64,000 nucleotides of DNA from an uncultured virus (IMG/VR IMGVR_UViG_3300018023_000193) (lineage: Duplodnaviria > Heunggongvirae > Uroviricota > Caudoviricetes). Where the stretch lies: IMG/VR virus record IMGVR_UViG_3300018023_000193, one strand, 5' to 3'. A model generated the notes under the pieces. The model searched no databases. It was not told the DNA's origin and was given only the letters and a program-made list of their open reading frames with translations. A program made the translations under genes and the position numbers. Positions 18,767 through 51,107 of this stretch are shown in pieces (position 1 is the first letter of the stretch; every line of letters starts with the position of its first letter).

Positions 18767-18792
18767 TCAATTGCCACTGGTTTTAAAATTCC

Positions 18793-18835
18793 GGGGAATT
18801 AGGGACCTTAAAATCCTTAATTCCCCATTTTTTTG
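18793..18835 (+). terminator. Rho-independent terminator after gp23
   Basis: GGGGAATTAGGG...CCTTAATTCCCC followed by a T run. Confidence 0.8.
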
Positions 18836-30382: not shown

Positions 30383-30847
30383 ATGACAAAGTACGTTGCC
30401 GGTTTTCTTTTCAGTTCTGACGGCTCCAAGGTAGCCTTGATCCACAAGAACCACGGGCCTGCTTCGGTGGTAGGGCACTGGAATGCCATCGGCGGTAAGC
30501 GCACATCCGGAGAGCCTGGGTTGCCAGATGAAAGCGCCAGCGCGGCCATGTGGCGCGAGTTCAATGAAGAGGCTGGAGTTGCCGTGGGTTGGACGCTATT
30601 TCTCAGACTTTTTGGGAAGGATTGGTCTGTTGAGTTCTTTCATGCCTTTGACACAACAAAACTGGAGGCTTGCCGCACGCTGGAGTCCGAAGAGGTGCGC
30701 ATATTCCCAGTTTCGGACCTCCCCAACGTGGTTCCAAACCTTCGATGGATCATCCCGATGGCGAGAGGCCACCAAGACGATCACGTTTGGCTGTACGAGG
30801 TGGAAGAGAAAGAGACTTTTGCGCCATGCGGGAATGATCCAAAATAA
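30383..30847 (+). CDS. NUDIX hydrolase (GC-rich insert)
   Basis: WNAIGGK...ESASAAMWREFNEEAGV Nudix box; GGAGG RBS. Confidence 0.88.
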   Translation: MTKYVAGFLFSSDGSKVALIHKNHGPASVVGHWNAIGGKRTSGEPGLPDESASAAMWREFNEEAGVAVGWTLFLRLFGKDWSVEFFHAFDTTKLEACRTLESEEVRIFPVSDLPNVVPNLRWIIPMARGHQDDHVWLYEVEEKETFAPCGNDPK

Positions 30848-38431: not shown

Positions 38432-38851
38432 ATGGCAGATTTTTTTAGGTTTTTAGATTCAATTAATAAAACGAAAAAAAATTTACTTGAGGATTCTGAA
38501 TCAGATCCTCAAATAACTGAAAAAGAATATAAGCGGTATGCGTATGTGATAAATCGTATATTTGCTCGTTTTCCTGATTCACTTTATTATGCCCAAGAAA
38601 TGAATAAAAGATCGAGTTTAGATGGTGCTCCTCAATATCTTTTTTATCTGTATGGTGTTTCTGCGCGTCCTCGTTTTGCAAAAGGAACAAAAGATGAAAA
38701 ACCTGAAAATTTAGATTTAGTTAAAGAATATTATTCCTATTCTACTAAAAAAGCTAGAGAAGCATTGAAAATCCTTACTGAAAAGGATCTTGAATATATT
38801 AAATCTCGAATGTATCAGGGTGGTATAAATAAAAAGAAAAATGTTTTATAA
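38432..38851 (+). CDS. gp62: Clamp loader small subunit
   Basis: FLDSINKTK, YAQEMN, LVKEYYSYS.KKAREAL.IL. Confidence 0.9.
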   Translation: MADFFRFLDSINKTKKNLLEDSESDPQITEKEYKRYAYVINRIFARFPDSLYYAQEMNKRSSLDGAPQYLFYLYGVSARPRFAKGTKDEKPENLDLVKEYYSYSTKKAREALKILTEKDLEYIKSRMYQGGINKKKNVL

Positions 38852-43926: not shown

Positions 43927-43927
43927 A

Positions 43928-44006
43928 GTTTTGATGTTCCATACGGACGAGGCTGAGGCTGGTAGCCAACCCAGGTGGGAAGCGAGCGGTAATGGAATAT
44001 CAAAAT
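43928..44006 (+). ncRNA. Candidate structured RNA after tRNA-Arg
   Basis: 14-bp closing stem (43929-43942/43992-44005) enclosing GC-rich short hairpins. Confidence 0.55.
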
Positions 44007-44013
44007 AAAATGC

Positions 44014-44046
44014 TTGACAATTTTTTAAAATATGCTATACTATAAT
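44014..44046 (+). promoter_or_regulatory. Sigma70-type promoter
   Basis: TTGACA...TGCTATACTATAAT. Confidence 0.65.
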
Positions 44047-45385: not shown

Positions 45386-45408
45386 ATATAGGGGAATTAA
45401 AATTCCCC

Positions 45409-46056: not shown

Positions 46057-46059
46057 AAT

Positions 46060-46137
46060 TCACTAGATGCCGAGGTGGTCGAGGCGCTAGGTCTGCAAAA
46101 CTGGTCTTAGAGGGTTCAAGTCCCTCCTGGTGGTCCA
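46060..46137 (+). tRNA. tRNA-Cys(GCA)
   Basis: Loop CT GCA AA; U73 discriminator; imperfect stems; CCA. Confidence 0.75.
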
Positions 46138-46145
46138 AATTAGAA

Positions 46146-48234: not shown

Positions 48235-48311
48235 GCCACGGTAGCTTAATCCGGGAAAGCGGTTGACCTGTAATCAACAGAGAGGGAGTTCGATTCTCCC
48301 CCGCGGCTCCA
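48235..48311 (+). tRNA. tRNA-Thr(UGU)
   Basis: GTTGA-CC TGT AA-TCAAC; CCA. Confidence 0.88.
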
Positions 48312-48314
48312 GTT

Positions 48315-48417
48315 TGGTATGGGTACGCCTAGCATACCACAAGAAGATGGTCCTTGAGCAAGATCATCTCGCCTCCTTACAGGGTTCTTTCGCGTGAGCA
48401 AAGAATCCACTAGGCGT
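48315..48417 (+). ncRNA. Candidate pseudoknotted RNA after tRNA-Thr
   Basis: P1 48315-21/48333-39; pseudoknot 48325-32/48410-17; two internal hairpins. Confidence 0.6.
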
Positions 48418-48430
48418 CTTTAAAAATCAC

Positions 48431-48459
48431 TTGACAAGCGGCCTTACATACGCTATAAT
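48431..48459 (+). promoter_or_regulatory. Sigma70-type promoter
   Basis: TTGACA-N17-TATAAT. Confidence 0.8.
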
Positions 48460-51015: not shown

Positions 51016-51063
51016 GCGAGGAATCCTGTGGCTTCAAGACCATGAGACCATTATAGATTCGGG

Positions 51064-51087
51064 ATTCGCGATTCGCGAATCGCGAAT
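51064..51087. repeat. Perfect 24-bp palindrome
   Basis: ATTCGCGATTCGCGAATCGCGAAT is its own reverse complement. Confidence 0.9.
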
Positions 51088-51107
51088 GGGCGCCTCGGAT
51101 GAGCGTG

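Follow-up and report, generated by a model that had tools for sequence, protein, structure and literature searches.

A predicted pseudoknotted RNA in the 3' trailer of tRNA-Thr in an uncultured phage from peat soil

In aptamers of the preQ1-II/III and SAM-II type, a 3' tail pairs back to the loop of a hairpin, and the resulting pseudoknot encloses an embedded hairpin. Theta ribozymes, found in gut Caudoviricetes, are minimal HDV-like ribozymes associated with tRNAs (Kienbeck et al. 2024, PMC10879173); in the passages of that report drawn on here their fold is a nested double pseudoknot, the catalytic cytosine, first in J4/2, is treated as essential, and 4.5% of the theta-associated tRNAs encode CCA (PMC10879173). 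A second system is the tRNA region of phage T4, which yields a pair of small RNAs (RNAC and RNAD) given without an assigned role in the part of the account cited (PMC3014915).

Here we describe a predicted RNA of about 100 bases, with three hairpins and a knot, that lies directly 3' of a threonine tRNA gene in an uncultured peat-soil phage. The DNA analysed, referred to as the window, is a stretch of 64,000 nucleotides with 32% GC, taken from a 74-kb contig of an uncultured phage (CheckV completeness 41), most of which it covers. It carries 16 tRNA genes, 15 of them in a loose cluster from 43.7 to 54.2 kb, all on the + strand. The tRNA-Thr (UGU), with an encoded CCA end, occupies 48235-48311 (+; ARAGORN; RF00005, 57 bits), and the pseudoknotted element at 48315-48417 (+) forms its 3' trailer, starting 3 nt downstream of the CCA after the linker GTT (48312-48314, +). 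From the 3' end of the element 13 nt lead to a sigma70-type promoter (TTGACA-17-TATAAT, 12/12; 48431-48459, +), which lies outside the RNA and marks the end of the tRNA unit; a small ORF and then an ATP-dependent DNA ligase (Pfam) follow downstream. The initial annotation had described a GC-rich, non-coding element filling the space between the CCA and the next promoter, a description that agrees with these distances and with a GC content of 50.5%, similar to that of the neighbouring tRNAs, against 31.8% for the window.

Other structured stretches accompany the tRNA genes of the window. Directly 3' of tRNA-Arg, a 79-nt GC-rich branched long hairpin (43927-44005, +; fold z -2.9) ends 8 nt before a promoter-like site at 44014 and makes a second structured tRNA trailer, of another shape. 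A tRNA-shaped sequence with the T arm GAGGGTTCAAGTCCCTC and a CCA end is located 3' of tRNA-Ala (46057-46142, +); it is called neither by ARAGORN nor at the Rfam gathering score, and its would-be anticodon loop region looks overlong. Just 5' of tRNA-Gly there is a GC-rich structured stretch with short repeats of the GATTCGCG type (51016-51107, +; -35.1 kcal/mol, z -2.0). Related GGGGAATTA...TAATTCCCC hairpins without a U-tract stand directly 5' of strong promoter-like sites at about 18790-18830 and at 45392-45408 (+), and may be the usual end-of-unit signal of this phage. Elsewhere, a NUDIX-domain ORF at 30383-30847 (+; Pfam E 2.6e-5), with a local GC content of up to 65% in a phage of 32% GC, looks like a recently acquired foreign gene.

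The four helices proposed in the initial annotation are all present as described when read from the sequence, on the + strand. P1 joins TGGTATG (48315-48321) to CATACCA (48333-48339) by seven Watson-Crick pairs. Its loop begins with GGT (L1, 48322-48324), and the last eight bases of that loop, ACGCCTAG (48325-48332), are the 5' strand of the pseudoknot (PK); they directly adjoin the P1 3' strand, with 0 nt between, and make eight Watson-Crick pairs with the PK 3' strand CTAGGCGT (48410-48417), a duplex of -12.2 kcal/mol. Hairpin H2 (48345-48369) has eight pairs, including one G.T, between AGATGGTC (48345-48352) and GATCATCT (48362-48369), closed by the loop CTTGAGCAA; hairpin H3 (48382-48408) has nine pairs, also including one G.T, between GGGTTCTTT (48382-48390) and AAAGAATCC (48400-48408), beyond which come a bulged C and the cap GC-GUGA-GC (GC-GTGA-GC in the DNA). 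A single A (48409) separates H3 from the PK 3' strand.

Three distinct versions of the element were found, from two lineages, and are called here window type, type a and type b. The window type is identical in four other contigs, including two IMG/VR contigs and one metagenome contig. Its sequence is present in 20 DNA runs, and the four run assemblies that were compared proved identical, without any variant; no RNA run with the stretch was found among 23 listed runs. Relatives were collected via the ligase, and they fell into two groups by ligase identity. Where this is 45-62%, the slot is empty or simple: in two cases (L007 and L013) the promoter comes 10 nt past the CCA of tRNA-Thr with nothing in the slot, and in another (L008) the slot holds a plain GC hairpin, then a T-rich run. 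At 74-86% ligase identity (L136, L137 and L139), type a occupies the same site as the window element, in the order tRNA-Thr, GAAAA as the linker, TTGGAACG-GGACACCTGG-CGTTCCAA, a branched hairpin, an H3-like hairpin, A and CCAGGT. In this sister lineage an ORF for an HNH endonuclease (L137 300-740; Pfam E 4.6e-5) lies between tRNA-Asp and tRNA-Thr, as against an AT-rich spacer of 72 nt between the same two genes in the window.

Type b lies about 150 nt beyond type a in the same lineage, and was also found in L135 and L194. It is a short paralogue without H2 and H3, consisting of TTGGAATG-GGGCACCTGG-CATTCCAA, one 5-bp hairpin and CCAGGTG, and it starts 1 nt (the linker A) after a 66-nt anticodon-less tRNA look-alike. 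Acceptor stem, T arm and CCA are all present in this look-alike (L139 654-719; found also in L135, L136, L137 and L194), but the anticodon arm is replaced by a GGGG-GAAA-CCCC hairpin; it is called neither by ARAGORN nor by RF00005. Element and promoter were duplicated together in this lineage. Sites matching the window promoter lie in L139 at 587-615, which is the look-alike's own promoter, and at 793-821, and types a and b each end 11 nt before a TTGACT -35 hexamer. In all three types, the position is fixed, with a start 1-5 nt after a CCA end and a stop 11-13 nt before the -35 TTGAC. Since type b is again placed 3' of a tRNA-shaped RNA, the knot appears to be tied to tRNA-shaped transcripts and not to a particular downstream gene.

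The three types have in common a P1 of 7-8 bp, a loop that starts with GG and an 8-position pairing between loop and 3' end adjoining P1. The pseudoknot strands are ACGCCTAG/CTAGGCGT in the window type (all Watson-Crick), ACACCTGG/CCAGGTAT in type a (one C.A mismatch) and GCACCTGG/CCAGGTGT in type b (one G.T). Double-sided changes that keep the pair number seven (two in P1, two in the pseudoknot and three in H3), all of them Watson-Crick, and the single-sided changes gave two G.U pairs and the one C.A mismatch. Both sides are altered with pairing kept at positions 4 and 6 of P1 and at positions 3 and 7 of the pseudoknot; between type a and the near-identical type b, P1 shows a C-G to T-A swap. 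A structure-guided alignment of H3 between the window and type a gave the three double changes of that helix, its base GG.TT/AATCC being kept in type a; there, AA stands between the aligned 9-pair H3 and the knot, and if the first A is paired as well, as it can be, H3 gains a tenth pair and one A remains. The G.U pairs favour the + strand by 3 to 1. H2 is variable and could not be aligned with that of type a. As to the loops, TGAGCAA occurs in the window in both the H2 loop (48355) and the H3 loop (48395), which bears out the remark of the initial annotation that TGAGC is contained in the two internal loops; the word is not conserved, as type a carries GCAGTAAAG twice instead and type b has neither, and the loops are thus not part of a conserved core. 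With H2 and the loop words set aside for this reason, the core would consist of P1, the GG and the pseudoknot (together with the base of H3), the inserts being variable. The annotation had proposed covariation among homologues as a check, and the few homologues found do covary, the pseudoknot included; with only three distinct sequences from two lineages the statistics are thin, and the covariation is suggestive of a conserved fold rather than statistical proof of it. On this comparative evidence we take the pseudoknotted RNA in the tRNA 3' trailer to be real.

We then considered how far the fold stands out from chance. The nested fold is unremarkable, with a z of -2.35 on the + strand (a level reached by 4 of 200 shuffles) and of -2.38 on the - strand; being nearly equal, these values make folding energy by itself weak evidence and do not allow a choice of strand. 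The pseudoknot layout is less common; it was scanned for as a hairpin of 7-8 bp with a loop of 9-12 nt, the 3' part of which pairs within 160 nt downstream. Over both strands of the window (128 kb) two matches reached a score of at least 22, the element with 23 and another at 38487 with 22, which sits inside an ORF and was regarded as background. Behind the 16 tRNAs of the window the scan gave 23 for tRNA-Thr and one AT-rich match at 15 for tRNA-Val, and it detected no such fold 3' of the 45 tRNAs in near-complete genomes of relatives (13 in G003 and 32 in G004). The PK duplexes of the three types range from -9.2 to -13.0 kcal/mol, and in each type the nested fold plus its PK duplex comes out lower than the nested MFE by 7.4-9.2 kcal/mol, the penalty for knot formation being left out. 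In the nested MFE of the window, CGCCU (48370-48374) pairs alternatively with the PK 3' strand; this pairing is absent from types a and b.

Comparison with known RNA families agrees with the initial claim that the RNA is an unrecognised one, since no Rfam family matched the element at E<=10. At gathering score, Rfam 15 (4227 models) returned tRNAs only, and at E<=10 the stretches of 117-561 nt around the three types gave chance-level matches only, namely mir-924 (E 2.3), sraL (0.56), 6A (6.3) and Plastid-ycf2 (0.053; on the antisense strand of a tRNA). Within 48312-48417 no tRNA is called, ARAGORN and RF00005 both stopping at 48308/48311. The misfit to HDV/theta, pistol and hammerhead ribozymes noted at the outset was upheld as well. 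No match at E<=10 was obtained with the pistol, hatchet, twister and hammerhead models, and an HDV-like descriptor of our own (P1 5' - P2 5' - P3 hairpin - P1 3' - (P4) - J4/2 - P2 3') had 0 solutions in all three types; among shuffles of each, 18-32 of 200 (9-16%) had at least one. As 0 nt lie between the PK 5' strand and the P1 3' strand, there is no room for P3/L3, and the cytosine at the start of J4/2 was not found, the junction reading A in the window, AA in type a and CCTCCA in type b. Two further candidates were discarded. A T-box-like UGGN/NCCA reading of the base of P1 fails at the N, which does not agree with the discriminator of the tRNA upstream (window, U; type a, C); a type III antitoxin mimic was dropped for want of tandem repeats.

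Searches for further homologues added no fourth version. Megablast with 3 kb against phage records gave no match, and blastn with 281 nt just 30-nt AT-rich chance matches. A single-sequence covariance model (R1) returned identical copies only (5 viral records, at least 118 loop-word-pattern loci, 79 metagenome loci), with one copy in the 74-kb record and none in the relatives' records G003-G006; a match at 14 bits (L081) was spurious. The DNA of the element as a query found nothing in G001-G005. The flanking 260-aa protein led to the same two contigs only, and the small downstream protein family to no new informative locus. Among viral contigs, a core pattern gave two self matches and a GC-rich sequence without a tRNA (L215), and a tRNA-anchored pattern gave two self matches and a locus with 5/7 P1 pairs (L223); L215 and L223 were both rejected. 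In prokaryote genomes the tRNA-anchored pattern matched 69 loci, 28 of them with 7/7 P1 pairs, and just two of these 28 (L273 and L286) have the 6-nt downstream complement; their loops are self-complementary, and we read both as plain long hairpins behind tRNAs. The top layout score of 26 belongs to an element-like layout at G004:C1:4865-4983 (+), equivalent to about 1500-1620 of L219, with P1 GTGGACGG/CCGTCCAC, L1 GGC, an 8-bp pseudoknot GAATGCCA/TGGCATTC and two inner hairpins. It was taken as background and not as a homologue: it runs antisense within a 1007-aa ORF, no tRNA is near, and the genome, of 50% GC, has 18 matches of at least 22, another one also at 26. For this candidate, P0002 showed no homologue in the five other records. 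The TGG..G-GG features that this fold has in common with the element are odd. A literature search found no paper linking a pseudoknot to phage tRNA trailers.

As to function, the explanation that we favour, and hold tentatively, is that the element is a cis-acting end-piece, folded at the tail of the tRNA transcription unit and freed by a cut at the CCA end. It would be transcribed from the + strand as the tail of a tRNA-Asp/tRNA-Thr unit; the last 8 bases of the loop of P1 (7-8 bp) would pair with the far 3' end and give an H-type pseudoknot stacked directly on P1, and the long connecting loop would accommodate one or two variable hairpins. Such a compact and presumably nuclease-resistant structure would bound the tRNA unit just before the next promoter, and cleavage by an endonuclease within the linker of 1-5 nt would free the CCA end of the tRNA and release a knot of about 105 nt as a discrete RNA. 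A location 1-5 nt behind a tRNA-shaped RNA and just before a promoter, in a slot that in relatives is empty or holds a simple terminator-like hairpin, constrains the possible function. Moreover, on our reading 5 of the 17 strong promoter-like sites on the + strand of the window have a strong hairpin just 5' of them, which suggests that this slot usually holds an end-of-unit structure; together with the constraints of position it argues for a role in cis. Against it stands the lack of a U-tract after the last helix: the window continues with CUUUAAAAA, and in types a and b AAAUAUUUUU begins 3-4 nt further on. Intrinsic terminators, defined as a GC-rich hairpin with at least 5 T among 8 bases beginning 0-2 nt after it, were found neither on the + strand of 48312-48430 nor in L139 300-1000. 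A plain hairpin would suffice as a 3' end, and the conserved knot is left unexplained by an end-piece role; furthermore, a stable fold 1-5 nt past the CCA would hinder exonucleolytic trimming of the tRNA unless an endonuclease or self-cleavage acts first.

Next after the end-piece comes a possible but rather unlikely explanation, in which the tRNA precursor would give rise to a trans-acting stable small RNA, like T4 RNAC/RNAD, serving as decoy or binding partner for a protein or RNA of the host or the phage. The position of the element fits RNAs of that kind, its gene lying in a phage tRNA cluster as do those of the two small RNAs of T4 in the account cited (PMC3014915), and structured stretches are also present beside other tRNAs of the window (43927-44005 and 51016-51107). 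Each orthologue has its own doubled loop word, a candidate for paired binding sites; but the words differ between orthologues and type b has none, and TTGCTCA, the complement of TGAGCAA, occurs 6 times on the + strand of the 64 kb against about 4 by chance on a rough estimate.

Catalysis seems doubtful. The element would then be a self-cleaving ribozyme of a new class, with a fold different from theta, whose cut, at its own 5' end or close to it, would remove the tRNA 3' trailer. It occupies the place of theta ribozymes directly behind phage tRNAs, as described in the portion of that report used here (PMC10879173); its core is compact and pseudoknotted, with peripheral hairpins that vary and can be deleted (type b, without H2 and H3), and the GG in L1 is invariant. 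A knot so near the CCA needs an endonucleolytic cut for the tRNA to mature, and this keeps the idea alive. Nevertheless, few unpaired bases are conserved (the GG and the base preceding the PK 3' strand), the linker after the CCA ranges over 1-5 nt, none of the ribozyme models gave a match at E<=10 and the sequence admits no HDV-like fold; in addition the CCA is encoded here, against 4.5% of theta-associated tRNAs in the figures quoted from that source (PMC10879173). It is improbable, in our estimate, that a new class of pseudoknots, self-cleaving or directing processing, has in this element its first recognised member; such knots would be placed 1-5 nt behind phage tRNA or tRNA-like genes and would make their 3' ends without host endonucleases.

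We regard with similar doubt the idea that the element is a small mobile or selfish DNA insert (MITE-like) or a promoter-upstream element at the DNA level, the hairpins being a by-product. Among relatives it is present or absent at one site, it looks as if about 106 nt had been inserted into a spacer of about 10 nt, the outer strands ACGCCTAG...CTAGGCGT can be read as 8-bp inverted ends, and the joint duplication of element and promoter in the type a/b lineage makes a link to the promoter possible. The edges show no target-site duplication, however; there is a single copy in the 74-kb record and none in G003-G006 (R1) or G001-G005 (element DNA), and the pattern scans of the viral and prokaryote collections gave the same phage and background only. 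The matched double changes and the G.T pairs point instead to selection on an RNA fold. Very improbable is a ligand- or factor-sensing, riboswitch-like pseudoknot controlling read-through from the tRNA unit into the ligase operon: the topology is that of preQ1-II/III and SAM-II type aptamers and the alternative pairing of CGCCU with the PK 3' strand is the predicted nested MFE in the window, but types a and b lack that pairing, no riboswitch model matched at E<=10, the element stands upstream of the promoter and not in a 5' UTR, and neither a terminator nor a ribosome-binding site overlaps the PK 3' strand.

If the element were self-cleaving or directed processing, it would represent a second, independent RNA solution for finishing viral tRNAs, in this case in a phage of soil or peat whose tRNAs have their CCA ends encoded; if it merely closes the unit, it would be an unusual pseudoknot in the slot of a terminator or insulator. 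Either way the construct is short (60-114 nt) and can be tested at the bench.

Turning again to the described systems, the element is like an intrinsic terminator in its slot, from unit end to next promoter, where L008 has its plain GC hairpin and T-rich run; it differs in having no U-tract directly after the last helix, and in that the last helix to form would be the pseudoknot. With preQ1-II/III aptamers it shares the topology class, a further hairpin being embedded in a long loop, whereas no model of these matched and the element is neither in a 5' UTR nor provided with an expression platform. The wcaG RNA (RF01761; Weinberg et al. 2010, PMC2864571) is likewise a small pseudoknot-containing viral RNA. 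RF01761 did not match the window element or types a and b at E<=10 (gathering score 42 bits), and as a positive control it scored 74-93 bits in four of five cyanophage records, with no match in P-SSM2. The GUUUC-hairpin-UGGYG units of the wcaG consensus have no sequence in common with the TGG.A.G-GG core, and we read a wcaG unit as a compact knot of about 35 nt, against 60-114 nt with inserted hairpins in the present family; judged by this single model test, the element and RF01761 are not the same family. To T4 RNAC and RNAD, small non-coding RNAs among phage tRNA genes in the text cited (PMC3014915), the likeness is one of context alone. Theta ribozymes offer a pseudoknotted RNA directly 3' of a phage tRNA gene on the same strand, for which the quoted passages propose a link to removal of the tRNA 3' trailer (PMC10879173); the element differs from them in the absent P3/L3 hairpin, the encoded CCA and the linker of 1-5 nt. 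What this locus appears to hold is a structurally different, uncatalogued fold in the niche of T4 RNAC/RNAD and the theta ribozymes.
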